A stretch of 64,000 bases of DNA from Mobula hypostoma. Its lineage: Eukaryota. Shown in pieces: positions 6-60,019 of this stretch; position 1 is the first letter of the stretch, and the number at the start of each line of letters is the position of its first letter. Below the pieces are notes generated by a model that had not been told where the DNA came from, searched no databases, and worked only from the letters and a program-made list of their open reading frames with translations. The stretch spans positions 150,166,001 to 150,230,000 of the forward strand of contig NC_086097.1 in assembly GCF_963921235.1 (NCBI RefSeq). The letters run 5' to 3'. The position numbers were made by a program, and so were the translations under genes.

Positions 6-1701
6 ACAAACACGAGGAAATCTGCAGGTGCTGGAAATTCAAGCAACACACACAAAATGCTGGTGAATGCAGCAGGCGAGGCAGCACCTATTGGAAGAGG
101 TACAGTCAACGCTTCGGGCTGAGACCCTTCATCAGGACTAACAAAGAAGAGATAGTAAGAGATTTGAAAGTGGGAGGGGAGGGATGGAGCTAAGAACTGG
201 AAAGTTGATTGGCAAAAGGGATACAAGGCTGGAGAAGGGAGAGGATCATGGGATGGGAGGAGAGGAACACCAGAGGAAGATGGAGAGCAGGCAAGGAGTT
301 GTAGTGAGAGGGACAGAGGGAGAAAAATAAGAAATAGGAAAAAAATAATAAAGAAGGAATGGGGTAAGAAGGGGAGGAGGGGCATTAACAAGTCAATGTT
401 CATGCCATCAGGTTGGAAGCTACCCAGACAGAATACAAGGTGTTGTTCCTCCAACCTGGGTGTGGCTTCATCTTGACAGTAGAGGAGGCCATGGATAGAC
501 GTATCAGAAAGGGAATGGGACGTGTGACCACTGGGAGATCCTGCTTTCTCTGGTGGACAGAGCGTAGGTGTTCAGCAAAACGGTCTCCCAGTCTGCGTCG
601 GGTCTCGTCAATATACTGAAGGCCGCACTGGGAGCACCGGACGCAGTATATCACCCCAGCCGACTCCCGACTCACAGGTGAAGTGTCGCCTCACTTGGAA
701 GGACTGTCTGGGGCCCTGATTGGTGGTGAGGGAGGAAGTGTAAGGGCATGTGTAGCACTTGTTCTGCTTACAAGGATAAGTGCTGAGAGGGAGATCGGTG
801 GAAAGGGATGTGGGGGGGGGGGGAATTCGCTGAACACCTACGCTCTGTCCACCAGACTTTCATCTCTCTTCCCCCCCCCCATCCCTTCCCACCGATCTCC
901 CGCCCAGCACTTATCCTTGTAAGCAGAACAAGTGCTACACATGCCCTTATACTTCCTCCCTCACCACCATTCAGGGTCCCAGACAGTCCTTCCAGGTGAG
1001 GCGACACTTCACCTGTGAGTCGGCTGGCATGATGTACTGCGTCTGGTGCTCCCGGTGCGACCTTCGATATATTGGCAAGACCTGAAGCAGACTGGGAGAC
1101 TGTTTCGCTGAACACCTACCTTCTGTTCACCAGAGAAAGCAGGATCTCCCAGTGGCCACACATTTTAATTCCACATCCCATTCCCATTCTGACATGTCTA
1201 TCCACGGCCTCCTCTACTGTCAAGATGAAGCCACACTCAGGTTAGAGGAACAACACCTTATATTCTGTCTGGGTAGCCTCCAACCTGATGGCATGAACAT
1301 TGACTTCTCTAACTTCTGCTAATGCCCTTCCTCCCCTTCTTGCCCTATCTCTTATTTATTTTCCCTTTTTCTCTTTTTTTCTCCTGTCCCCCTCTCACTA
1401 ACTCCTTGACTGCTCTCCATCTTCCTCTGGTGTTCCTCTCCTCCTATCCCATGATCCTCTCCCTTCTCCAGCCTTGTATCCCTTTTGCCAATCAACTTTC
1501 CAGCTCTTAGCTTCATCCCTCCCCCTCCTGTCTTCTCCTATCATTTCGGATCTCCCTCTCCCCCTCCCCCTTTCAAATCTCTTACTATCTCTTCTTTCAG
1601 TTAGTCCTGACAAAGGGTCTCGCCCCAAAACGTCGACTGTGCCTCTTCCTATAGATGCTGCCTGACCTCTTGCGTTCCACCAGCATTTTGTGTGTGTTGC
1701 T
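6..1701. mobile_element. Penelope-like element (PLE), tail-out inverted pair of 3' fragments (GIY-YIG end plus terminus)
   Basis: Minus arm 6-~822 encodes CESAGVIYCVRCSQCGLQYI..ETRRRLGDRFAEHLRSV (GIY-YIG endonuclease). Plus arm ~826-1701 is its reverse complement. Confidence 0.9.
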
Positions 1702-1990: not shown

Positions 1991-3229
1991 AGCTATCGTG
2001 AAGGGGAACAGGTTGGCAATGCTTGGTTGTTGGCAGGTAAGGTTAATACCTGATGTTCAAGAGCACTTGTGAGTTATGTTCTGGCTGGACTTGGTCCTTA
2101 AACTGCTGGAGAACAGTGCGGAAAGAACAGGTGCTGTTTTCTCCTGGAAGGGATTAATTTTTTGTTCCAAGTGATCCAGCCACGTTTTGACACCCTGCAA
2201 CCTTGTCCTTCAATCTCTTTGAATTATAGAGGACAGCATATGTATGAATGTCTCTCTCCAGCGGACTTCATGATCATCATGACTCCAGTATTTCTATTAT
2301 TTTTTAATGCTGCTTAATTGTACCTATCATTTTTTTGTGTTCTATCTCTGAGCAGCAGTGACCCATTTGATTGGCCTATCGGTTCTGTTTGGGAACTAGT
2401 TGACTTGATCAGTATTTCTGATCTGGCTATTGTTCATGATTGCACTGAATAAAACAGTAATAAAATAGACAGCTCCATTTTATTCTTCAATCTGATTATC
2501 TAGTGGCTTATCTGCATCTTAACCTCTAACTCTTGGTATCCATCTCCAAGCTAAAACAAAAATCTGAAGGGTCTCAGCCTGAAACATTAACTGTTTATTC
2601 ATTTCCACAGATGCTGCCTGACTTGCTGAGATCCCCTAGCTGTGTGTGTGCGTACTGGTTTGGGTTTCCAGCATCTGCAGACCATCTTGTGTTTTTAAAT
2701 ATCTGCCTTGGTTTTGACATAATCAATTGAGCTAGTTCATAGCTTTTAGTGTGTTGTTTGGGGGGGGTGGGGTAGAGCTGAAAATGGTGGGACTTGGTAT
2801 GAATATGCATGCTTAATTGTAGAACTTAAATGCAGGCTGCAAAGTTCACATGGGGGAAAATCATACATAAGATCTTGAACACCACAGCTCCTCTTTATTC
2901 TTAACTTCTGTCTGATTTAAATCATTTATCTCCATTCATCTACTTAAAAACCAACTGCGTGGGAATCCTAAAAGCACATTCTGCAGAAATTTCCATCGCA
3001 TTGACAGATATTTATGGTCTCTAATTTGAAGGAAGTGTAAATTACTTGTCAAAAGCTGTCCACAATTCATCTATTCTGGAGATGGCAACCTAGTGTAAAA
3101 TACCTCGCCTGCGTTGTACAGTGATACTAATCATCAAGACAAAGGGAATGATTTTGTCGTTAACTATTGCCACATTCTACTTGATATATGAATTCCAAAT
3201 AAATTCACTGATGCCAAAAAAAACAAATT

Positions 3230-5116: not shown

Positions 5117-8100
5117 CAAACACGAGGAATTCTGCAGATGCTGGAGATTCAAGCAACACACATCAAAGTTGCTGGTGAACACAGCAGGACACGCAGCATC
5201 TCCAGGAAGAGGTACAGTCGATGTTTCAGGTGGAGGCCCTTCGTCAAGACTAACTGAAGAAAGAGCTAGTAAGATTTAAAAGTGTGAGGCGGATGGGGAG
5301 ACCCAAAATGATTGGAGAAGACAGGAGGGGGAGGGATGGAGCCAAGAGCTGGACAGGTGATGGGCAAAAGGGGATACGAGAGGATCATGGGACAGGAGGC
5401 CCAGGGAGAAAGAAAAGGGGGAGGGGGGGAACCCAGAGGATGGGCAAGGGGTATAGTTAGAGAGACAGAGGGACAAAAAGGAGAGTGAGAGAAAGAATGT
5501 GTGTATATATAAATAACAGATGGGGTATGAGGGGGAGGTGGGGAATTAGTGGAAGTTAGAGAAGTCATTGTTCATGCCATCAGGTTGGAGGCTACCCAGA
5601 TGGAATATAAGATGTTGTTCCTCCAACCTGAGTGTGGCTTCATCTTTACAGTAGAGGAGGCTGTGGATAGACATATCAGAATGGGATGTGGAATTGAAAT
5701 GTGTGGCCACTGGGAGATCCTGCTTTCTCTGGCGGACAGAGTGTAGGTGTTCAGCAAAGCCGTCTCCCAGTCTGCGTTGGGTCTCGCCAATATATAAAAG
5801 GCCACATCAGGAGCACCAGACGCAGTTTATCACCCCAGCCAACTCACAGGTGAAGTTTCGCCTCACCTGGAAGGACTGTCTGGGGCCCTGAATGGTGGTG
5901 AGGGAGGAAGTGTAAGGGCATGTGTAGCACTTGTTCTGCTTACAAGGATAAGTGCCAGGAGGGAGATCAGTGGGGAGGGATGGGGGGTGGGGGCGGACGA
6001 ATGGACAAGGGAGTTGCGAAGGGAGCGATCCTTGCGGAAAGTGGGGGGGGGGGGAGTGAAGAGATGTGCTTAGTGGTGGGATCCTGTTGGAGGTGGCGGA
6101 AGTTACGGAGAATAATATGTTGGACCCGGAGGCTGGTGGGGTGGTAGGTGAGGACCAGGGGAACCCTATTCCAGTGGGGTGACAGGAGGAGGGAGTGAGA
6201 GCAGAAGTGTGTGAAATGGGGGAGATGCGTTTGAGAGCAGGGTTGATGGTGGAGGAAGGGAAGCCCGTTTCTTTAAAAAAAGGAGGACATCTCCCTCGTC
6301 CTGGAATGAAAAGCCTCATCCTGAGAGCAGATGCGGCGGAGACGGAGGAATTGCGAGAAGGGGATGGCATTTTTGCAAAAGACAGGGTGAGAAGAGGAAT
6401 AGTCCAGATAGCTGTGAGAGTCAGTAGGCTCATAGGAGACATCGGTAGATAAGCTGTCTCCAGAGATAGAGAGAAAAAGATGTAGAAAGGGGAGGGAGGT
6501 GTCGGAAATGGACCAGGTAAACTTGAGGGCAGGGTGAAAGTTGGAGGCAAAGTTAATGAAGTCAACGAGCTCAGCATGCGTGCAGGAAGCAGCGCCAATG
6601 CTGCCGTCGATGTAGCGAAGGAAAAATGGGGGACAGATACCAGAATACGTGTGGAACATAGATTGTTCCACAAAGCCAACAAAAAGACAGGCATAGCTTG
6701 GACCCATACGGGTGCCCATAGCTACACCTTTAGTTTGGAGGAAGTGGGAAGAGCCAAAGGGGAAATAATTATTGGCGCTGCTTCCTGCACGCATGCTGAC
6801 TTTATTAACTTTGCCTCCAACTTTCACCCTGCCCTCAAGTTTACCTGGTCCATTTCCGACACCTCCCTCCCCTTTCTACATCTTTCTGTCTATCTCTGGA
6901 GACAGCTTATCTACTGATGTCTACTATAAGCCTACTAACTCTCACAGCTATCTGGACTATTCCCCTGCTAACCCTGTCTCTTGCAAAAACGCCATCCCCT
7001 TCTTGCAATTCCTCCGTCTCCACAGCATCTGCTCTCAGGATGAGGCTTTTCATTCCAGGACGAGGGAGATGTCCTTTTTTTTTTAAAGAAAGGGGCTTCC
7101 CTTCCTTCACCATCAACCCTGCTCTCAAACACATCTCCCCATTTCACACACTTCTGCTCTCACTCCATCCTCCTGTCACCCCACTAGGAATAGGGTTCCC
7201 CTGGTCCTCACCTACCACCCCATCAGCCTCCGGGTCCAACATATTATTCTCGGTAACTTCCGCCACCTCCAACGGGATCCCACCACTAAGCACATCTTTC
7301 CCTCCCCACCCCCGCCCCCCCACTTTCCACAAGGATTGCTCCCTACGTGACTCCCTTGTCCATTCGTTTCCCCATCCCTCCCCACTGATCTCCCTCCTGG
7401 CACTTATCCATGTAAGCGGAACAAGTGCTACACATGCCCTTACACTTCCTCCCTTACCACCATTCAGGGCCCCAGACAGTTCTTCCAGGTGAGGTGACAC
7501 TTCCTGTGAGTCGGCTGGGGTGATGTACCGCGTCCAGTGCTCCCAATGTGGCCTTCAATATACTGACGAGACCTGACGCAGACTGGGAGATCATTTTGCT
7601 GAACCCCTATGCTCTGTTCGCCAGAGAAAACAGGATCTCCCAGTGGCACGCATTTTAATTCCACATCCATTCCCATTCTGATATGTCTATCCACGGCCTC
7701 TTCTACTGTAAAGATGAAACCACACTCGGGTTGGAGGAACAACGCCTTGTATTCCGTCTGGGCAGCCTCCAACCTGATGGCATGAACATTGACTTCTCTA
7801 ACTTCTGCTAATGCCCCACCTCCCCCTTGTACCCCATCTGTTATTTATTTATATACACATATTCTTTCTCTCACTCTCCTTTTTCTCCCTCTGTCCCTCT
7901 GACTATACCTTGCCCATCCTCTTGGTTGCCCCCCCCTTCCTTCTCCCTGGGCCTCCTGTCCCATGATCCTCTCATATCCCCTTTGCCAATCACCTGTCCA
8001 GCTCTTGGCTCCATCCCTCCCCCTCCTGTCTTCTCCTATCATTTTGGATCTCCCCCTCTGCCTCCCACTTTCAAATCTCTTACTAACTCTTCTTTCAGTT

Positions 8101-8200
8101 AGTCCTGATGAAGGGTCTCGGCTTGAAACGTTGACTGTACCTCTTCCTAGAAATGCTGCCTGGTCTGCTGCCTTCACCGGCAACTTTGATGTGTGTTCCT
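5117..8200. mobile_element. PLE, tail-out inverted insertion with RT and GIY-YIG remnants
   Basis: PLE RT motifs FLQTKGVAMGTRMGPSYACLF, FLRYIDG (decayed YIDD), FHPALKFT..SLPFL. Arms 5117-6599 (-) and 6771-8197 (+). TSD TAATGTAACATTG at 5104-5116 and 8201-8213. Confidence 0.93.
8101..8136 (+). ncRNA. Minimal type-I hammerhead ribozyme motif (PLE terminus)
   Basis: AGTC-CTGATGA-AGGGTCTCGGCTT-GAAA-CG-TT-GACT: stem I AGTC/GACT, CUGANGA and GAAA cores, GUU cleavage triplet. Confidence 0.75.
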
Positions 8201-8412
8201 TAATGTAACATTGTATGGAAATACAAGATAACACTGATGCAGACATGTTTTATACATTTAACAAGGTGCTTTATTAATGTATTGCTTGTGCAAACATTCA
8301 ATAGATGCAATTGTCACTTTTACCCAGTAACTTGTTTTATTGCACATGTTAAATACAGCAAAATAATACACAAAGACATGGCAAAAGTAAAGACAAACAA
8401 ATGAAGTAACAG

Positions 8413-9539
8413 TAAACAACAAGAATTCTGCAGATGCTGGAAGTTCAAGCAACACACATCAAAGTTGCTGGTGAACGCAGCAGGCCAGGCAGCATATCTA
8501 GGAAGAGGTACAGTCGACGTTTCAGGCCGAGACCCTTCGTCAAGACTAACTGAAGGAAGAGTGAGTAAGGGATTTGAAAGCTGGAGGGGGAGGGGGAGAT
8601 GCAAAATGATAGGAGAAGACAGGAGGGGGAGGGATAGAGCCGAGAGCTGGACAGGTGATAGGCAAAAGGGGATACGAGAGGATCATGGGACAGGAGGTCC
8701 GGGAAGAAAGACGGGGGGGGAGGTGACCCAGAGGATGGGCAAGAGGTATATTCAGAGGGACAGAGGGAGAAAAAGGAGAGTGAGAGAAAGAATGTGTGTA
8801 TAAAAATGAGTAACAGATGGGGTACGAGGGGGAGGTGGGGCCTTAGTGGAAGTTAGAGAAGTCGATGTTCATGCCATCAGGTTGGAGGCTACCCAGACGG
8901 AATATAAGGTGTTGTTCCTCCAACCTGAGTGTGGCTTCATCTCTGTCCGCCAGAGAAAGCAGGATCTCCCAGTGGCCACACATTTAATTCCACATCCCAT
9001 TCCCATTCTGACATGTCTATCCACGGCCTCCTCTACTGTAAAGATGAAGCCACACTCAGCTTGGAGGAACAACACCTTGTATTCCGTCTGGGTAGCCTCC
9101 AACCTGATGGCATGAACATCGACTTCTCTAACTTCCGCTAAGGCCCCACCTCCCCCTCGTACCCCATCTGTTACTTATTTTTATGCACACATTCTTTCTC
9201 TCACTCTCCTTTTTCTCCCTCTGTCCCTCTGAATATACCTCTTGCCCATCCTCTGGGTCTCTTCCCGCCCCCCCGTCTTTCTTCCCGGACCTCCTGTCCC
9301 ATGATCCCCTCGTATCCCCTTTTGCCTATCATCTGTCCAGCTCTTGGCTCTATCCCTCCCCCCTCCTGTCTTCTCCTATCATTTTGGATCTCCCCCTCCC
9401 CCTCCAACTTTCAAATCCTTACTCACTCTTCCTTCAGTTAGTCCTGACGAAGGGTCTCGGCCTGAAACGTCAACTGCACCTCTTCCTACAGATGCTGCCT
9501 GGCCTGCTGCGTTCACCAGCAACTTTGATGTGTGTTGCT
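8413..9539. mobile_element. PLE, tail-out inverted insertion (~1.1 kb)
   Basis: Arms ~8413-8941 (-) and ~8942-9539 (+). TSD TGAAGTAACAG at 8402-8412 and 9540-9550. Confidence 0.92.
9440..9475 (+). ncRNA. Minimal type-I hammerhead ribozyme motif (PLE terminus)
   Basis: AGTC-CTGACGA-AGGGTCTCGGCCT-GAAA-CG-TC-AACT; intact core, one stem-I mismatch. Confidence 0.7.
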
Positions 9540-9727
9540 TGAAGTAACAGCAAATTTCACTTTTGCCCAGTAATAAGCCTTATTGCATTTAGTTGTAGCT
9601 GTCATCCCTTTCATCAGTGAAGAGACTATGGCTGTAGGAGATGTTTCTGGACAAACACACACCAAGTATACAGTTTCCTCTTTACTTGTTTTCTGTGTGT
9701 CCTGCACATGCCCAGTAGGAGGAGATT

Positions 9728-22593: not shown

Positions 22594-23378
22594 TCTCAAT
22601 GTCTGGCGTCAAATAATCCATAAATCACTGGCGTGTTAACTGATTTTGTATTATAGAAATACCTTGATTCTAGCAAAGGATGTAAGGGTCTGAAATACTG
22701 TTTCTCTCTCCACGTTTGCTACTTGGGCTGCTGTATTTCTGACATCTTCCATTTTCATTTTAGATTTCTTGTATCTACAGTTTTGAGTGTTATTCACTGG
22801 TTTTCTGGAGGGTGTAGAGGCATTGCAATAGGCTTCAATATCTGGGTTCAAAAATGGGGGCCGTCAGCTGATGGCAATTTAGTCAAGATTCTTCGATAAG
22901 CTAATCATTCTTTAATGATTAGCCCTGATGAAGGGTCTTGGCCTGAAACTTCAACTGTTTACTCTTTTCCATAGATGCTGCCTGGTTGCTGCATCCAGCA
23001 TTGTGTGTTGCTTGGATTTCCAGTATCTGCTAATTTTCTTGTTTGTGATTTCTTAATGCTGTTTAAGTGTGCATAGATAAATATTGCATAAAATTCGAAT
23101 GAAGCTTGTCTGTGGAGCCTTAACTGTAAGCCTATATACAATTTCCTGACAGAATGAATGACTGGCTATTAAGAAAGAAAAGCTGGAGGTTATGGGCTGT
23201 GCAGGAGGGTTGGGTGAGATTGATCATGGAGTAATTTTATAAAGGTCAGCAGAGTGTTGTAGGCTGAAGGACCTGTATTGTGTTGTACTCTATGAATTAT
23301 TTGATTGCTAATGCTATACTTGAAATTTGTGCTCTTGGTCAGTGATTTTTTAGAATATTATTTTGTTTTTTGTTTTAG

Positions 23379-24434
23379 GTTTTGAATGATCCTAAAAGGC
23401 CACAAGGAAAAGGAAACTACTGGACAGTTGATGTTACTCGCATCCCACCTGAAGCATTAAAAAGGCAAAACACCTCTGTCTCGAGGCAGGATGGGAATAG
23501 CTTTGCAGCTAATTCTACTGCATATATCCAGGGTGGGATTTTGGGTCTTGCATCTTCTGAAGAAAGCAGCAAATTGGAACAAGTGTTGGAAGCTGCTGGC
23601 CCTTCAACTGCATTTCCACGACATGGTGACAGCAGGCTAGAGAATTCCTTCTCCATTGAAACATTGTGGAACAGTTTGGAAGCTTCTGCGTCTGAAAAGG
23701 ACAAGAGCTACTCTGGGCCCTCTGGATACTGCACAGAAAAGTCCTCAAATGAAGATCCTACCCAACAGAGATTGGAATTGAACTCCTGGCATCGTCAACC
23801 AGTCACGTCTGAGAATGCTCAGTGCTCCTCATCACTCTCTTCCTCACCAAGGGCTAATCATGGTGTTCAGTTTCACTCACCCTTAAGCACTTCGACTTCC
23901 AGTCCTTCCTCCATTGAGGATGACTCCAATATTTCCCAACAAGAATCCCCAAGTAGACCAGAGTCAAAGCGCCCAAGATTATCTGTGGAGTATGGCATAT
24001 CCGCTCCTGTTTCCATCTGGGACAATCATTGCTCCAGCTATCCAGAGCCAGCGCTTTCAGTAAGGCCCTACATGCACTGGGAGTTACCAACTTCCTACAC
24101 TAAATATACCCCTCCAAATGTAACACTGCCACCCACCATGAGCTTGCCGTATTCCACATTCTTCCCGTACAATAATCCATCAGGCTTGTTGCTGTATCCA
24201 TACAGGCCAACCCAATTCTTAAGCAGGCCGAACTGGCCTTTTCACCCTGATCCATGTTCTGTGCCATCGTTGCGACCATCACCTGTGCTGGATTTGGACA
24301 GAATGTTTCAAGTTGTCCCACCAAATAAAAGTGTCTTTGATGTCATGTTCTGCCCTGCTGGTGCTATTGGCTCTGCAGTGCCACCTGGTGCCACCAGTCT
24401 AATGAGAGCTCGATACATGCCATTTGATTACTGA
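23379..24434 (+). CDS. foxh1: Forkhead box protein H1 (FAST1), terminal coding exon
   Basis: Acceptor TTTTTGTTTTAG|GTT (phase 0). [38 protein letters not shown] is the FoxH1 forkhead C-terminus. Also FSIETLW (EH1-like), [13 protein letters not shown] (FM) and [17 protein letters not shown] (SIM). Uninterrupted frame to TGA at 24432-24434. Confidence 0.97.
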
Positions 24435-31600: not shown

Positions 31601-32689
31601 ATGTGAAAATAGTGTGGCCTGATAATAGATGTTGCCTTCTTTAGACAATAAATACCTACTCACGGTTTGCAGCTGACACAGGCAAAACATGGTCCCTGCC
31701 CTACTTTATGACTGTGTAATCCCCTAAACGAGCCGAGTCTGCTGTACTCCCAGTGTTCAGCTTTAAATCAGTATGTCATTGTTGAACTAAACTCTTAGTA
31801 ACTGTTCTTTTATCTAGAGATTTACTCTCTAATCCCATCAAAAGATTCTATAAATCACATTGCTGCCTCAGTTTTCTGGTCCAAAGGGCATTCATCAGCT
31901 GAAGGTATTCAAACAAAAATACTGAGATTCCTTTTATTGGAGTTGCGTGTCTTTGCTGGTTTAGAATGACTGCCACATTTAGTCATATGAGAACTTCCGG
32001 TAATTATCTCGCCTCGACCCCTCTCCTTCACCATTCCCCATTCCTGTTTCCCTATCTCCTTACCTGCCCATCACCTCCCTCGAGTGTTCCTCTTCCTTCC
32101 CTTTCTTCTATGGTCTCCAGACTGTAAGACAGGAACAGAATTAGGCCATTCAGCCCATTGAATATGGGGTATTTGACATGGATAACGTCCTACTAGAGGG
32201 AGAACAGGCAGCATGTAATGGTGGAAGTATCAATGGAGATTGAGCAGATATTATGTAGCAACACCTCATATACTGTCTGGGTAGTCTCCGGCCCCTTGGT
32301 ATGAACATAGAATTCTCCAACTTCCAGTAATTCCCTCCCTCTCCCTTCCTCTATCCCTATGTCACTCTGCCCCCTCCCCCGGCTGCCTATCACCTCCCTC
32401 ATGGTTCCGCCTCCTTCTACTACCGATTGTGTTTTCCCCGATTCCTTCTTCACCTTTCCTGCCTATCACCTCCCTGCCTCCCCTCCGCCACCCCTTTATC
32501 TTTCCCCTTACTGGTTTTTCACCTGGAACCTACCAGCCTTCTCCTTCCCACCCTCCCCCCACTTTCTTTATATGGCCTCTGCCCCTTCCCTCTTCAGTTA
32601 AAGGGTTCCAGCCCGAAATGTTGACTGATCGTTTCCACGGATGCTGCCCGACCTGCTGAGTTCCTCCAGCATGTTGTGAGTGTTATTAT

Positions 32690-39559: not shown

Positions 39560-41165
39560 ACATAAGAACATAAGAAATTGGAGCAGGAGTAGACCACCTG
39601 GCCCATTGAGCCTGCTCTGCCATTCAATGAGATCATGGCTGATCTGGCCATGGACTCATCTCCACCTATTTGCCTTTTCCCCATAACTCTTAATTCCCCT
39701 ACTATGCAAACATCTTTACAACTTTCTCTTAAGTATGTGTACTGAGGTAGCCTCCACTGCTTCATTGGGCAGAGAATTCCACAGATTCACCACTGTCTGG
39801 GAAAGGCAGTACCTCCTCATCTCCATCCTAAAATTACTCCCCCAAGTCTTGAGGCTATGTCTCCTAGTTCTAGCCCCCACCTACCAGTGGAAACAATTTT
39901 CTTCCCTCTATCTTATCTATCCATTTTGTAATTTTATATGTTTCTATAAGATTTCCTCTTCTTTTGAATTCCAGCAAGTACATTCCCAGATGACTCAATC
40001 TCTCCTTATAGTCTACCCCTCATCTCTGGAATCAAACTAGTATATCCCTCCTCAGTAAGGAGACCAGAGCTGAATGCTGTACTCCAGATATCGTCCCACC
40101 AGTACCCTGTGCAGTTGCAGCATATCTCTGCTCTTAAATTCAATCCCTTTAGTGATGGCCAACATTCTATTTACTTCCTTGATGGCCTGCTGCACCTGCA
40201 AGCCAACCTTTTGTGATTCATGCACAAGCACTCCCAAGTCCAGCTGCACAGTAGCATGCTGTAGACTCTCCGTATCTTCTGCACAATTTCCTTTTCCACT
40301 CAATTTAGTATCATCAGCAAACTTAGATACACTACACTTGGCCCCCTCTTCCAGATTGTTAATGTATGTCGTGAACATTTGCAGGTCCAGCCCCGACCCC
40401 TGCAGCACACCACTCACCACTGATTGTCAACCAGAGTAACATCCATGTCTTCCAACTCTCTGCTTTCTATTGGTTAACCAATTCTCTATCTGTGCTAATG
40501 CGTCACCCCCAACTCTATGCATCCTTATCTTATGGACAAGTCTTTTATGCAGAACCTTATCAAACGCCTTCTGGAAATCCAAGTAAGTAACGTCTATCTG
40601 TTCCCCTCTATTCACTGCACTCATTATATCCTCAAAGAACTCCAGTAAGTTTGTCAAACAGGACCTGCCTTTGTTAAATCTATGCTGCGTCTGCCTGGTG
40701 GATCCATTTCTTTCCCGATGCCACACTATTTCTTCTTTAATGATAGCTTCAAGCATTTTCTGAACTACAGATGTTAAACTGCTGACTTATAGTTACCTGC
40801 CTTTTGCCTACATCCTTTTTTGAATAGTGACGTGACATTAACCGTCTTCTAATCCACCAGGACCTGTCCTCCAGAGTCTAGAGGATTTTGGTAAATCATC
40901 ACCAAAGCCTCTACTATAATTTCTGCCATTTCTTTCAGTATCCTGGGGTGTATTCCATCAGGACCAGGGGATATATCTATCTTCAGGGCCACAGGTTTGC
41001 TCAGCACTACCTTAATAGTAGACATGAGGAACTCTGCAGATCCTGGACGAAGGGTCTCGGCCTGAAACGTCGACTGTACCTCTTCCTAGAGATGCTGCCT
41101 GGCCTGCTGCATTCACCAGCAAATTTGATGTGTGTTACCATAATAGTAGTGATAGCTATTATATC
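39560..41165 (-). mobile_element. CR1 fragment nested in the Gypsy internal region
   Basis: RSCLTNLLEFFED, YLDFQKAFDKV, SKFADDTK. Confidence 0.9.
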
Positions 41166-42640: not shown

Positions 42641-43309
42641 GTTTCACCAAGAAAGGTCTCGGAACTTTTGGAACATGCTTTGCCAACATCAGTCCTCATT
42701 TGTCCTGCCACAGGATCTGCTCCTAGTTTAAAAGAGGCTTTTGAGTACCATAACGTGACTCCCACTCACTCCGTCTCTTTTCGAGGTGTCTTCTCTTTTC
42801 TGCTACTAATGCCGGATTAGGTTCATAGCAGCAAAAGCCGGTTATGCGCCCATCTTCACCACATTTAAAATAGTACCAAGGTTTTAACTTTGACACTTGG
42901 CTGTTTGTCAGTGGTTGTGGTCTCTTGCTTATCTTTTGTGTCAGCCTTTTCTTTTAGTGGCTTATCATTTGCTGTCTCGGAGCTCGCTTTTTCCTTCTGC
43001 TGTTTTGTAGCTTGTAGAGTAGCTAGTGGACTTTGATGCTCAGCAATTTGTTTAGTCAGTTGAGAAGTAACTGAAGTTAGCTGTGTTAGCTCAGGCACCT
43101 GTGGTCTGTGGCTGTTTAATGGCACATTATTTGACTGTTCCTAAACGCTGTTTCATACGTGCGGTTCTGGAAGCATGCTTATTTTCCTCAGTGCATAGAA
43201 ATGGCAATTGTTCAGTAAACAATAAACAACAGGAATTCTGCAGATGCTGAAAATTCAAGCAACATACATCAAAGTTGCTGGTGAACGCAGCATCTGTAGG
43301 AAGAGGTGC

Positions 43310-43345
43310 AGTCGACGTTTCAGGCCGAGACCCTTCGTCAGGACT
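43310..43345 (-). ncRNA. Minimal type-I hammerhead ribozyme motif
   Basis: Exact reverse complement of 44454-44489. Confidence 0.8.
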
Positions 43346-44453
43346 AACTGAAGAAAGAGTGAGTAAGGGATTTGAAAGTTGGAGGGGGAGGGGGAGATCC
43401 AAAATGATAGGAGAAGACAGGAGAGGGAGGGATAGAGCCGAGAGCTGGACAGGTGATAGGCAAAAGGGGATACGAGAGGATCATGGGACAGGAGGTCCGG
43501 GAAGAAAGACAAGGATGGGGGGACCCAGAGGATGGGCAAGGGGTATATTCAGAGGGACAGAGGGAGATGTACGTGAAATGGGGGAGATGCGTTTAAGAGC
43601 AGAGTTGATAGTGGAGGAAGGGAAGCCCCTTTCTTTAAAAAAGGAAGACATCTCCCTCGTCCTAGAATGAAAAGCCTCATCCTGAGAGCAGATGCAGCGG
43701 AGACGGAGGTCATCCCCTTCTCGCAATTCCTCCGTCTCGACCGCATCTGTTCTCAGGATGAGGCTTTTCATTCTAGGACGAAATTTAAAGAAAGGGGCTT
43801 CCCTTCCTCATTTCACGTGCATCTGCTCTCACTCCATCCTCCCGCCACCCCACTAGGAATAGGGTTCCCCTGGTCCTCACCTACCACCCCACCAGCCTCC
43901 GGGTCCAACATATTATTCTCCGTAACTTCCACCATCTCCAACGGGATTCCACCACTAAGCACATCTTTCCCTCCCCCCCCTCTCTGCATTCCGCAGGGAT
44001 CGCTCCCTACGCAACTCCCTTGTCCATTCGTTCCCCCCATCCCTCCCCACTGATCTCCCTCCTGGCACTTATCCGTGTAAGCAGAACAAGTGCTACACAT
44101 GCCCTTACACTTCCTCCCTTACCACCATTTGTTCTTTCTAGTAATATCCATTTTAACTATTTTTTTAAACCATTAATTTCAGTCAAGGCCTTTTTAACAT
44201 GGAAAACTAAGGGAATAATAACTTTTTCTCCCTCTGTTCCTCTGAATATACCCCTTGCCCATCCTCTGGGTCCCCCCCCCACCTCCTTGTCTTTCTTCCC
44301 GGACCTCCTGTCCCATGATCCTCTCGTATCCCCTTTTGCCTATCACCTGTCCAGCTCTCGGCTCTATCCCTCCCCCTCCTGTCTTCTCCTATCATTTTGG
44401 ATCTCCCCCTCCCCCTCCAACTTTCAAATCCCTTACTCACTCTTCCTTCAGTT

Positions 44454-44489
44454 AGTCCTGACGAAGGGTCTCGGCCTGAAACGTCGACT
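44454..44489 (+). ncRNA. Minimal type-I hammerhead ribozyme motif
   Basis: AGTC-CTGACGA-AGGGTCTCGGCCT-GAAA-CG-TC-GACT; predicted cleavage after GUC (44485). Confidence 0.8.
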
Positions 44490-45752
44490 GCACCTCTTCC
44501 TACAGATGCTGCTTGGCCTGCTGCGTTCACCAGCAACTTTGATGTATGTTGTTCAGTAAACAATGGTGGGTTTTGTTTTCTCTGTTCCAGTTAGCTTCAG
44601 TTTCAGCAACTTCGCCTCACTTTACGGTCAGAGTCAATGCTACCTGTAGCCGCTGTGGGTAGGCAGATGGCTTTTCACCCTTGTTCTGTACTGTGTTCAT
44701 GAATTTAGTGAATAATTCATCACCATCTTCCATAGTGGCAAAAGCTGAATCTAGGAGTTGCATGGATTTAGCAGGTGAAGTTCCAGGTCTTATTGACTTG
44801 ATGATGTCAGAAGCTGGTGGAAGAATACTTCCACCTATTTTCCATGCTCTATGAAGATCAGGCACACTTGGGTCGTGCAAGAACAGTTCAACATGGGCAC
44901 ACCAAGTCTCTTAATCCATCTCATCAAGTGGACAAGGAATTCTGCCAGAAAAAGTTCGGAGCCTTACTGGTGGTTTGCCATGAGCCATCAAGTCATTACT
45001 GTGCACAATGTGCTCCACTACAACTTTTGAATACCTGGAGGGTTAAGGTCACTGGGAGAGAGGGATGGGTTCACTGCAACTCCATTAGTTTGTATTACAG
45101 GGACTGAGTTACTCTGCAGAGCAGCTAGAGCTGTGTCTGACTGGTTAGTATCAGAGGAGCCTGCTCTGGTATGAGCAGATGTGGTTTTGTGATGTACATC
45201 CTCATCAATTTCAACAGTGACTGTTTCCCTACTCTCGATAGTAAGGGTTTCATTGATCTGTGTTGCCATCTGAGAATCAGGTTTATTATCACTGGCATGT
45301 GACATGGAATTTGTTACCTCTCTCAGGATTTTGTCATAATCTTTCCCACTGCGGTAAGCTTGAGTGGTGTCAGAGTGTAAACACTGGCTAAAGTAATAAC
45401 AAGGTTGGAATCTTCTTGGTCACCGTTTGCTTGTTGCATGTACAGTAACAAGGGATGGAGATCTTGCATTGCAGAGCCAACATTGTATTCTACTGTGAGG
45501 TACTAGGGAGATTCTGCACCGGAGTCAGTTAGAGGAATAACTGTGGCAACTGAAACATACTCTTTTAGAAAGTCTAGTATTTCCTCATCTTTTCCTGTCC
45601 CTGTTATACCACTGACTAAAACAGCGTTTGGGATTTTGACACACTTTTCTTTCACTGTAGATTTTAACTGAATGAAAGTGAGTTTGAACAATAAGAATTG
45701 GTGCTGTGTATACTAAACAGTGTGTTTAGTGTTTATCTAATAAACTGCCTCC

Positions 45753-52060: not shown

Positions 52061-54129
52061 ACACATCCAGACTGGATATCCTCCAGGGAAATGTGGAAGT
52101 GAAAGTCCTGAGTTCTGCAAGGCAGGTACCATACATCAGACATCCAGATATTGTAGAAGGATAGTAAAGAAATGAGATCAGAGTTTTGTGCTCAGTGCAT
52201 GCATGTCTGGACTACCATCTCTGCTAGAGACATCTTCTCCTGCCTCATGGCAATTCCTCAACCAAGAGCATTCAGGAACAAAGCAGAAAATCAAGTTCAG
52301 GAACAGCTACTTTCCTATAACTTCTAGGCTCTTGAACTGACCTGTTAACCCTAACCCTAACTTAGCAATGGAACTTGTCCCAGATTGTGTCCATATTTTT
52401 TGCACTAAGATCTTGTTTTTCCAGGGATTTGTTTTTCTCTCCCTCCGTTCTCTGGTCTAAGTTATATTCTGTGTGTTGTTTGTATCCGCTCCCTTGTCGT
52501 GCTGCTGACATTGTGCCTCACGCGGCCCTGTCTACCGGCACAGACGGACTGAGTCTATGCTGGTGCAGTTGAAGCATTGCGGGAGAAAAACGAATATTGG
52601 ATCAGCTGTCGGAGGTGCCGTACTCAGCAAATTGAGTGCTCTCTCTCTCGTTGGTAGAGGAGAGTTTGTTGCGGATTCTCGGGTCAGAGAACTCAGAATA
52701 AAAAAGTTACACGTCAGATTTTATCATTGAAAAGCAGTGCATTGTTTTGTTGTGAAAGGGGACACCTTGTTTCCCTTCATTAGGGAGAGAGAGAGCCTGT
52801 GGCATGTTGAATTGTGGGGTGAACGATTAGTTTTTGTTGCACTGCAGATCACGGTCTTTATTGTGGGCTTTGCTATTGCATGCTCAGTGGGTGGAGGGTG
52901 CTGATGCTTTTTTGCTAAGCGAATATGGGTGGGGAGGGTTGTTGCTTTGCCACTGCTTGCGCATGGGAGGAGTAGGGGGGCTTTGGGGTTCTAACATTTT
53001 TGCTTTCCTCCATTCTTTGAGGCACTCTTCTGTTTTTGTGGAGGTCTACAAAGAACAAGAATTGCAGGATGCATATTGTGTACATTTCTCTGATATTAAA
53101 TGGAACTATTGAGCTGTACTTGTGCATGTTGCAATAAACTCCACTTGAGAACAATACATTTATCACTTTGCTCTCTCTCTGCTGGGAATACATGAAGCCC
53201 AAGTGTAAGCACCTAGAATCTGACCAATCTCTGCCTAGCATTTATATCTGGATCTTACATCAGTCACTTCACGATCCACAAAACTCTAGAAGCAAATAAA
53301 AGCAGAAAAATGGTAGAAACACTTGGTATTTCAGGCAGCATTTATGGAAAGAAATAAAAGGAACTTCTTTTGACACTACTGTGCTACTATGACGTCGACT
53401 GTACCTCTTCCTAGAGATGCTGCCTGGCCTGCTACATTCACCAGCAACTTTGATGTGTGTTGCTTCTTTTGACATTTTCAGGTCAAAGACCCTTCATCAG
53501 ACCCGAATTTCAATCAACTCTCTTTTTGTGTTACCAATACCAAAAAAAATCTGCTGATTGTTTTCAGCATTTTCTGTTTTCTTTCTCTCTTTATTTTGAG
53601 TGTAAAAAAATCATCCTCCACTCCAAGAACCTGAGAGAACAAATCTGTTTCTGTCTTGAGTTTGCATTTGAATGCCATAAACATAGGAGACCCCTGAGGT
53701 GATGGGTTTGCAGAGACAGGTAAGCCTTTCTTTACTAGACATGTGGAGCCAGCCTGTTAAGATCTTCTCCTCCTTGTTTATTGCTTATTTATCAGTGTAT
53801 CAGGTGCAAAATCTCGCTGTCATACATTTTAAAATACAATGGCTGCTTCCCTGTTAAATACTTGGCAGAACTGATTCAATTGTTTAACACTTTAAAGATA
53901 AAGAGGGAAAAATAAAGAAAGCTAAAGTGGATCTGTAGAAGTTAACAATGAGAATTACAAAAGGTTGTTATTCACTAAGGAACATGTTACATTATCAGTG
54001 GGGGAGAAAATACAAACAGACCCTAATTCATTGTCCTTTTTTTGATTGTGCCCAGAATGTTCTAATATGATATCAGTAGGGTGTTTCTTGCCTGAAACGG
54101 GGTAAAACAAGTGATAAGCGAATTAAATT

Positions 54130-54644: not shown

Positions 54645-55560
54645 GAAAATTGAAATCTACAGCACATTACAGGCCCTTCAGCCCACAATGTTGTGCCGAC
54701 CATGTAACCTACTCTAGAGACTGCCTAGAATTTCCCTAGCGCATAGCCCTCTATTTTTCTAAGCTCCGTGTACCTAGCTAAGAGTCTCTTAAAAGACCCT
54801 ATTGTATCCACCTCTACTACCATTCCACGCACCCACCACTCTGCGCAAAAAGCTTACCTATGACATCCCCTTGTACCTACTTCCAAGCACCTTAAAACTG
54901 TGCCCTCTCATGTTAGCCATTTCAGCCCTGGGAAAAAGCTTCTAGCTATCCACGTGATCAATGCCTCTCATCATCTTATACACCTTCGTATCCCTTCTGA
55001 CAACCAACTTTCTAGCTCTTAGCTCCATCCATCACCCTCCTGTCTTCTCCTATCATTTTGGATCTCCCCCTCCTCCTCCCACTTTCAAATCTCTTACTAT
55101 CTCTTCTTTTAGTTAGTTCTGAAGAAGGATCTTGGCCCGAAGTGTTGACTGTACCTCTTCCTATAGATGCTGCCTGGCCTGCTGCGTTCACCAGCATTTT
55201 TTGTGTGTGTTGCCTAGAAAAAGCCTCTAGCTATCCACATGATCAATGCCTCTCATCATCTTATACACCTCTATCAGGTCAACTCTCATCTTCCATCACT
55301 CCAAGGAGAAAAGGCCAAGTTCATTCAACCTATTCTCATAAGGCATGGTCTCCAATCCAGGTAACATCATTGTAGGTCTCTTCTGCACTATCTCTATAGT
55401 ATCCACATCCTTCCTGTAGTGAAGTGACCAGAACTGAACACATTACTCAAAGTGGGGTCTAACTAAGGTCTAAAATAGCTTTAACATTACTTCACGGCTC
55501 TTGATCTCATTTCCACAGTTGGTGAAGGTCATCACACCATACACCTTCTTAACAACATCA
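54645..55560 (-). mobile_element. CR1 3' fragment with nested PLE terminus (~54986-55213)
   Basis: EIKSREVMLKLF and a CR1 tail. The PLE piece is flanked by a ~55-bp duplication of CR1 sequence. Confidence 0.8.
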
Positions 55561-59510: not shown

Positions 59511-60019
59511 AATAGCAAAGGACAGACTTGCAACAGCCATCTTCAACAGTAAACAGTCTATTGCTTATACGGTTTTGTGAAAGTTCAACGTAAATATTAT
59601 CAAATACATATTCGTCACCATGTACAGCCATGAGATTCATTTTCTTGCAGGCAATCACAATAAACAGAAGAAAGACAATACAATCAATGAAAGATCTCAC
59701 CCAGCAACACACACAAAGTGCTGGAGGAATGCAGCAGGCCAGGCAGCATCTATGGAAAAGAGTACAGTCGACGTTTCAGGCTGACGGTACTCTTTTCCTA
59801 GATGATGCCTGGCCTGCTGAGTTCCTCCAGCACTTTGAATTGAATTGACTTTACTACTTACATCCTTCACATATTTTATATTTTGTATGCTGTAGTACTT
59901 CCTTTTTATTCGCAGTTGTTTTGTAAATAATACTATTCTTTTGCACTTCTAGTCAGATGCTCGTTGCATTTCATTGGCTTTGTATCTGTACTCAGCACAA
60001 TGACAATAAAGTTGAATCT

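Follow-up and report, generated by a model that had tools for sequence, protein, structure and literature searches.

Abundant minimal hammerhead ribozyme motifs in a Neptune-type Penelope-like element of the ray Mobula hypostoma, and a possible capped RNA start at their first base

Penelope-like insertions and hammerhead motifs in the window

The window analysed in this study is a stretch of 64,000 nucleotides of the Mobula hypostoma genome (contig NC_086097.1, positions 150,166,001 to 150,230,000 of the forward strand). It contains inverted insertions of a Penelope-like element (PLE), the remnants of which have their nearest protein relatives in rays, together with dispersed copies of a 36-base motif (Table 1). 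Positions are numbered from the predicted cleavage bond (-1/+1, i.e. 44485/44486), so that the motif extends from -32 to +4. In the insertion at 43224-44551 the two arms are 93.5% identical over 325 bp and carry perfect motifs facing outward in opposite ways; the minus arm reaches the second of two 3'-end sites (~+102) described below.

Table 1. Coordinates of the hammerhead motifs and PLE insertions in the window
Feature	Position	Strand	Basis
Decayed motif copy, GAAA broken	104-139	-	ungapped scan
Decayed motif copy, both core halves broken	1603-1638	+	ungapped scan
Truncated motif copy, older family	2557-2592	+	ungapped scan
Second inverted PLE insertion: RT C-terminal part, Cys linker, GIY-YIG, pLTR, two motifs	5117-8210	.	
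Motif in second insertion, core broken	5216-5251	-	
Cys linker and GIY-YIG endonuclease remnant, one in-frame stop	5549-5986	-	
Motif in second insertion, features intact	8101-8136	+	
Third inverted PLE insertion	8406-9552	.	
Motif in third insertion, C3->U	8512-8547	-	
Motif in third insertion, stem I closing pair lost	9440-9475	+	
Decayed motif copy, older family	22921-22956	+	ungapped scan
Decayed motif copy, another family	32591-32626	+	ungapped scan
Short copy, start near motif front edge, end at first 3'-end site	41040-41136	+	ungapped scan
13-bp target site duplication, left copy	43211-43223	+	
5'-truncated inverted PLE insertion	43224-44551	.	arm comparison
Minus arm: pLTR part, motif, long tail	43224-43567	-	
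Identical motif, inverted arm of same insertion	43310-43345	-	exact match
ORF scraps of the insertion	43552-44130		
Plus arm	44222-44551	+	
Branch-point-like word, pyrimidine tract, AG ending inside stem I 5' arm	44432-44455	+	sequence
Minimal type I hammerhead motif	44454-44489	+	descriptor match and PMC4209133 Fig. S3 consensus
Position -32, putative RNA start	44454	+	
Stem I 5' arm	44454-44457	+	
CUGACGA	44458-44464	+	
Unpaired A	44465	+	
Stem II, G.U at 10.1-11.1, loop CUCG	44466-44469/44474-44477	+	
GAAA, followed by C15.2-G16.2	44478-44481	+	
UC	44484-44485	+	
Predicted cut	44485/44486	+	
Stem I 3' arm	44486-44489	+	
5' UTR segment up to first 3'-end site (~+66)	44486-44551	+	
13-bp target site duplication, right copy	44552-44564	+	
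Decayed motif copy, GAAA broken	55115-55150	+	ungapped scan

An ungapped scan revealed 13 copies of the motif in the window, as well as partial arms at 53392 and 59705-59838. Five copies have at most three mismatches, while 100 shuffles gave 0 such copies. The two copies predicted to be perfect (44454 and 43310) are exact, and all the predicted decayed copies were recovered (104, 1603, 2557, 5216, 22921, 32591, 41040 and 55115). The copies at 8101, 8512 and 9440, described as near-intact, indeed differ by only 2, 1 and 1 mismatches, respectively; however, the change at 8512 hits the core and the one at 9440 removes the stem I pair beside the cut site. The core, UH, palindrome and both stems are retained in only three of the 13 copies (43310, 44454 and 8101).

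Several further observations concern PLE sequence and its surroundings. The inverted junction of two PLE linker pieces at 726-964 constitutes a long hairpin, on which spurious plant and animal miRNA matches, below the Rfam gathering scores, were obtained. PLE RT/endonuclease sequence is also present inside the ray gene models P0004, P0005, P0012, P0017 and P0018, which bear host names (mucin-2, kinase-domain, chitinase-domain, receptor, phosphatase); this would reflect either exonisation or annotation error. A 351-codon open frame at 23379-24431 (+), which we take to be FoxH1-like, carries a forkhead-like C-terminal motif at its start and has no Pfam match; the decayed sense motif copy 22921 lies ~420 bp upstream of it.

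The motif belongs to a known class of minimal hammerhead ribozymes

The CUGANGA, GAAA and UH core elements are present in this order, and a reversed control gave 0 matches. Helix I comprises 4-5 bp and helix II 4 bp, with one unpaired A between positions 9 and 10.1. In the best reading of stem II, this A is followed by GGGU/GCC(U/C), closing the CUCG loop. The palindrome ACGU (15.1-16.1), without loop 3, occurs in the majority sequences of all four families of the motif (see below), and GAAA is followed by C-G-U-C, as in many rows of the published alignment (PMC4209133).

The consensus given there for minimal hammerhead ribozymes (min-HHRs) of metazoan PLEs consists of helix I (2-6 bp), CUGANGAH, a G...C helix II with G10.1-C11.1 at >80%, GAAA, the palindrome and UH (Cervera and De la Pena 2014, PMC4209133). 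As the ray motif fits this consensus, we assign it by sequence to the known minimal hammerhead class of PLEs. The sole departure is seen in the dominant subfamily, where 10.1-11.1 is a G.U pair: position 11.1 is U in 65 of the 90 family-A copies, including the one at 44454, with G-C in 23 of the 90 and in the other three families. Such a G.U has precedents in the Clonorchis, cichlid and Xenopus rows of the alignment (PMC4209133). In contigs of one related organism C predominates at 11.1 (~3/4 by summed depth), while those of another have mostly U, and the G.U form therefore looks lineage-specific.

The Rfam covariance models gave no hammerhead match at E up to 5 or 10, and the isolated 36-mer folds no better than its shuffles (MFE z -0.37, an uninformative value); the identification thus rests on the descriptor and the published alignment. 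On this basis, what had been predicted as a known minimal type I PLE hammerhead with an ACGU palindrome stands with respect to class, palindrome, location in PLE termini and density; the cleavage activity also envisaged is considered separately below.

Two other readings of the motif were rejected. An alternative hammerhead register with the cut at -32 fails on sequence, as stem I would not pair. Conserved coding sequence was discarded because only one of the two families compared has an open frame here: in the second family (L188:3103-3400) it stays open through the motif and on into the ORF, which is not the case in family A. Another min-HHR, unrelated to this one and with a 6-bp helix II, was detected once in 1.44 Mb of sampled loci (L011:5155-5200, +). 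Compared by eye, it shares 38 of 42 positions with the Clonorchis sinensis (1) Cercyon-PLE row of PMC4209133 Fig. S3, for which PLE exchange between flukes and rays or a conserved clade are possible explanations.

The carrier is a Penelope-like element with a Neptune-type linker

Judging from its linker, the carrier of the motif is an endonuclease-positive PLE of the Neptune type. An 887-residue frame at genome locus L186 matched RVT_1 (E 3e-9), GIY-YIG matches just under the Pfam cut-off were obtained for five of the six scanned relatives, and the linker between the RT and EN reads C-X4-C-X2-C. A CX2-5CxxC linker defines the Neptune-type EN+ PLEs, a linker motif being given for Nematis too (PMC8557442). 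The ray element further displays pLTRs, inverted truncated copies and a one-sided tail of 30-40 bp. The motif is located in the pLTR/5' UTR, with the ATG at +142, i.e. 142 nt past the predicted cut site, and flanks the ORF on both sides in two of 20 long loci (L201 and L188, with units of 3,511 and 3,552 nt).

Abundance and conservation of the motif

A 35-base pattern of the motif has 41,475 exact matches in the 3.48-Gb genome (control: 0), and a 17-mer located just downstream has 121,071. In a 394-kb sample chosen without regard to the motif (the window and 33 other stretches), 46 copies with up to 7 mismatches were found, 18 of them with an intact core. This amounts to ~1 core-intact copy per 22 kb.

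Clustering of 309 arms, with the family-A fold-back clusters set aside, yielded four families with at least 16 members, and 79 arms fell into small clusters. The motif is 89-97% identical between the family majorities, its differences being confined to loop II, N7, 11.1 and H17, and every catalytic position is invariant. Between the same majorities, the identity is 39-69% in the 36 nt upstream and 25-80% in the 20 nt downstream, although conservation is also fair from +25 to +101 (62-91%). For a pair of individual full-length copies identified via their RT, the identity is 76% over RT-EN, 40% over the pLTR and 81% over the motif. As had been anticipated, the core is better conserved than its flanks, which argues that it is under constraint in the source elements. 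No compensatory stem changes were found among the four families, the stems being invariant and variation confined to loop II. Mismatch rates within families were not counted as evidence of selection, because many loci had been picked by their match to the motif.

Copy ends

The 3' ends fall into two bins, +60 to +72 (123 arms) and +95 to +112 (112 arms), which together hold 235 of the 279 arms from the sampled loci. By analogy, these sites would correspond to the two internal RT starts and tail described for the Poseidon_Ac element (PAc) of Anolis carolinensis (PMC11167929).

For the 5' ends, genome patterns were used that demanded a match downstream and mismatches upstream of the junction. 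They gave 17,754 matches for the 16 positions -41 to -26, a count that includes other families (21 of 73 rows so classed by script), against 2,639 for -6 to +7 and 2,918 for -59 to -47 (13 positions each). In a matched one-site test, position -32 had 439 junctions, from several families, and position -53 had 12, from family A. Approximately 60% of the family-A junctions (31/52) are fold-backs, in which microhomology can shift the end; among the remaining 21, 14 lie at -33 to -30 (binomial p 7e-5 to 6e-4), and at several of these the target duplication directly abuts the junction. Minor 5' ends spread out to -37. The fold-backs at L010, L057/L058, L080/L081 and L098 use repeats of the motif itself as microhomology, namely the stem I arms, the GTCGAC palindrome and GAC/GTC.

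In unselected DNA, the end lies between -41 and -26 in four arms out of 25. Since 13 of the 25 extend past -300, and both full-length copies continue upstream of -32, not all templates start at -32 and capped monomers would not be the sole templates. The cut site was rejected as the main 5' end, accounting for at most ~1% of copies: 7 of 26 non-deletion junctions lie at -1/+1, which is about twice the flat share, though confounded by the GTCGAC palindrome.

Among the first 100 matches listed, G precedes -32 in 82 and A in the other 18 (counted by eye, with patterns that allowed only G or A at -33), and G:A is 27:3 in a 30-locus subset; the background G share before this site is 56%, and a control site gave a G:A of 7:5. 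With non-T at -34 the G excess is weaker, ~18 G to 16 A in host-flanked rows counted by eye, against a background of 38%. Sixty loci were checked, 40 of which were classed as host-flanked and 15 had a duplication of at least 8 bases. Among these 15, seven show no extra base, three exactly one (G in each case) and five a longer addition, four of these ending in G. Untemplated G is accepted as a cap signature for L1 and SVA (PMC4859970). The pile-up and the extra G at -32 suggest that a capped RNA starts at the ribozyme and is copied uncut. Our literature searches, with Repbase, Dfam and Lunse et al. 2017 outside their scope, found no paper describing either the 5'-end pile-up or the extra G.

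Expected activity of the genomic copies

In the predicted fold of the monomer, the core GACG pairs with CGUC, at -11.0 versus -7.0 kcal/mol for the open core, which has a probability of 0.0006. A double hammerhead is predicted at -11.5 kcal/mol, compared to -22.0 for two closed monomers. With C at 11.1 the model double hammerhead reaches -16.7 kcal/mol, i.e. U11.1 weakens the dimer by ~5; all these values come from a nearest-neighbour model that omits tertiary contacts. Min-HHR monomers examined in earlier work showed no cleavage and dimers weak cleavage (PMC4209133), of nine Xenopus dimer elements one was active (bioRxiv 10.64898/2026.07.22.740005), and the Anolis PAc hammerhead needed the PLE protein (PMC11167929).

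Most copies are solo or inverted 5'-truncated insertions. An opposite-strand partner lies within 4.2 kb of 27 of the 46 sampled copies and a same-strand neighbour within that distance of 20. As the perfect copies of the window are opposite arms of one insertion, the motif and its own antisense would likely pair within a read-through RNA. Most genomic copies are likely to be inert, and the fold predictions, the weak or protein-dependent cleavage reported and the opposite-strand partners make widespread cutting of host RNA unlikely. The density of core-intact copies, the same-strand neighbours and the number of exact copies would favour the idea that the dispersed motifs are active self-cleavers at high density, as the original prediction has it, and that they cut host read-through RNAs, but the closed monomer fold, lying far below the double hammerhead when doubled, and the published inactivity of monomers render it improbable.

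The motif could instead be kept as a protein-binding or promoter element whose cleavage was lost in the youngest subfamily. The weakened model dimer of the dominant U11.1 form would fit such a loss, as would the finding that hammerhead mutations had no effect on PAc insertion in vitro (PMC11167929) and that Naiads proliferate without hammerheads (PMC8557442). On the other hand, no catalytic position varies across the family majorities, and the G.U pair also occurs in the published PLE min-HHRs mentioned above; we therefore consider this explanation unlikely.

Origin of the 5'-end pile-up and a proposed mechanism

The pile-up might also reflect a 3' splice site at which the RT is blocked or the RNA end is processed, the true start lying upstream, as in Penelope of Drosophila virilis. 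U2AF or another protein on the pyrimidine tract/AG would stop the RT, or an exonuclease would trim the RNA to a protein-bound stem I. All four families indeed have a pyrimidine tract with AG at -32/-31, to which family A adds a branch-point-like word. Helix I is where the intron of D. virilis ends (PMC4209133), and the minor ends out to -37 could be read in the same way. However, the G excess is specific to -32, no GT..AG joint was found among the best 15 of 42 joints in contigs from putative RNA runs, and the searches for spliced genomic copies from ORF-end donors returned 29 and 10 genome matches that were all different and unrelated, with no recurrent junction. We give this explanation a minor, though not negligible, chance.

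We think it rather probable that the source element produces a capped RNA starting at A-32, that reverse transcription begins at +66/+102, and that slow, dimer- or protein-dependent cleavage acts on the cap or on unit length. The motif resides in the pLTR of a Neptune-type PLE and would travel as passive cargo, mostly within truncated copies. Its place in the source element is likely the very start of the capped RNA, which the RT likely copies uncut; for Anolis PAc, uncut RNA was the dominant RT substrate in vitro (PMC11167929). The RT would start internally at +66/+102, as was shown for the Anolis Poseidon (PMC11167929), and run off at the capped end, giving mini-copies of ~100 and ~135 bp, while longer copies would arise from tandem or circular RNA, with the RT continuing through the pLTR and ORF. 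Slow cleavage after GUC via the ACGU palindrome, dependent on a dimer or on protein, is proposed from published work; its effect would be to release units of ~3.5 kb from tandem RNA or to take off the cap. Selection on the core would be explained by such processing of tandem RNA or cap. The chances appear about even that the capped transcript begins exactly on the first base of the hammerhead, the ribozyme being a built-in decapping or unit-cutting switch and the mini-copies products of run-off to the cap.

Comparison with known systems

Among the metazoan PLE min-HHRs, the nearest row to the ray motif is that of Acropora digitifera Neptune. The ray motif shares with this group CUGANGA-H, a short helix I, a 4-bp helix II with a 4-nt loop, and GAAA-C-G-U-C without a helix III loop; as there, it occurs in each pLTR of full-length elements and stands alone in truncated copies (PMC4209133). 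The alignment rows of that paper that were compared contain no cartilaginous fish. The number of exact ray copies given above compares with ~4,000 copies reported for the coelacanth and ~9,000 for Xenopus (PMC4209133).

PAc resembles the ray element in the two internal RT starts defining a tail, in a hammerhead at the pLTR-ORF junction and in an uncut RNA template, the RT starts and the uncut template being proposed for the ray. Nevertheless, the PAc ORF starts inside the hammerhead, whereas the ray ATG lies well past the cut, Poseidon is devoid of the Cys linker, and PMC11167929, in the sections compared, describes no 5'-end pile-up.

In Penelope of D. virilis as in the ray element, helix I has an AG and a pyrimidine tract at its 5' edge, and an internal pLTR promoter, putative for the ray, is common to the two (PMC2377424, PMC4209133). 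In D. virilis, transcription starts 46 nt ahead of a 75-nt intron (PMC2377424), while the ends of the ray copies point to the first base of the ribozyme, and ORF-end donors gave no spliced copies.

Non-LTR retrozymes also contain type I hammerheads derived from PLE pLTRs, and one chondrichthyan case has been reported (bioRxiv 10.64898/2026.07.22.740005). They form head-to-tail arrays, in contrast to the copies of the window, which are dispersed or are inverted ends of an autonomous element; head-to-tail tandem units each with a hammerhead were not found within the window.

Significance

Both the ribozyme class and the retrotransposon class are already known, and here the motif is very abundant. 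What PLE hammerheads do is unclear according to PMC8557442. Should the transcript begin on the ribozyme and be copied uncut, cleavage would be directed at removal of the cap, or at tandem or circular intermediates, a role that would differ from that in R2, where cleavage creates the template's 5' end. In that case, the tens of thousands of mini-copies in the ray genome would constitute a genome-scale in vivo record of uncut RNA as a mobile template, and would allow the purpose of PLE hammerheads to be tested directly.
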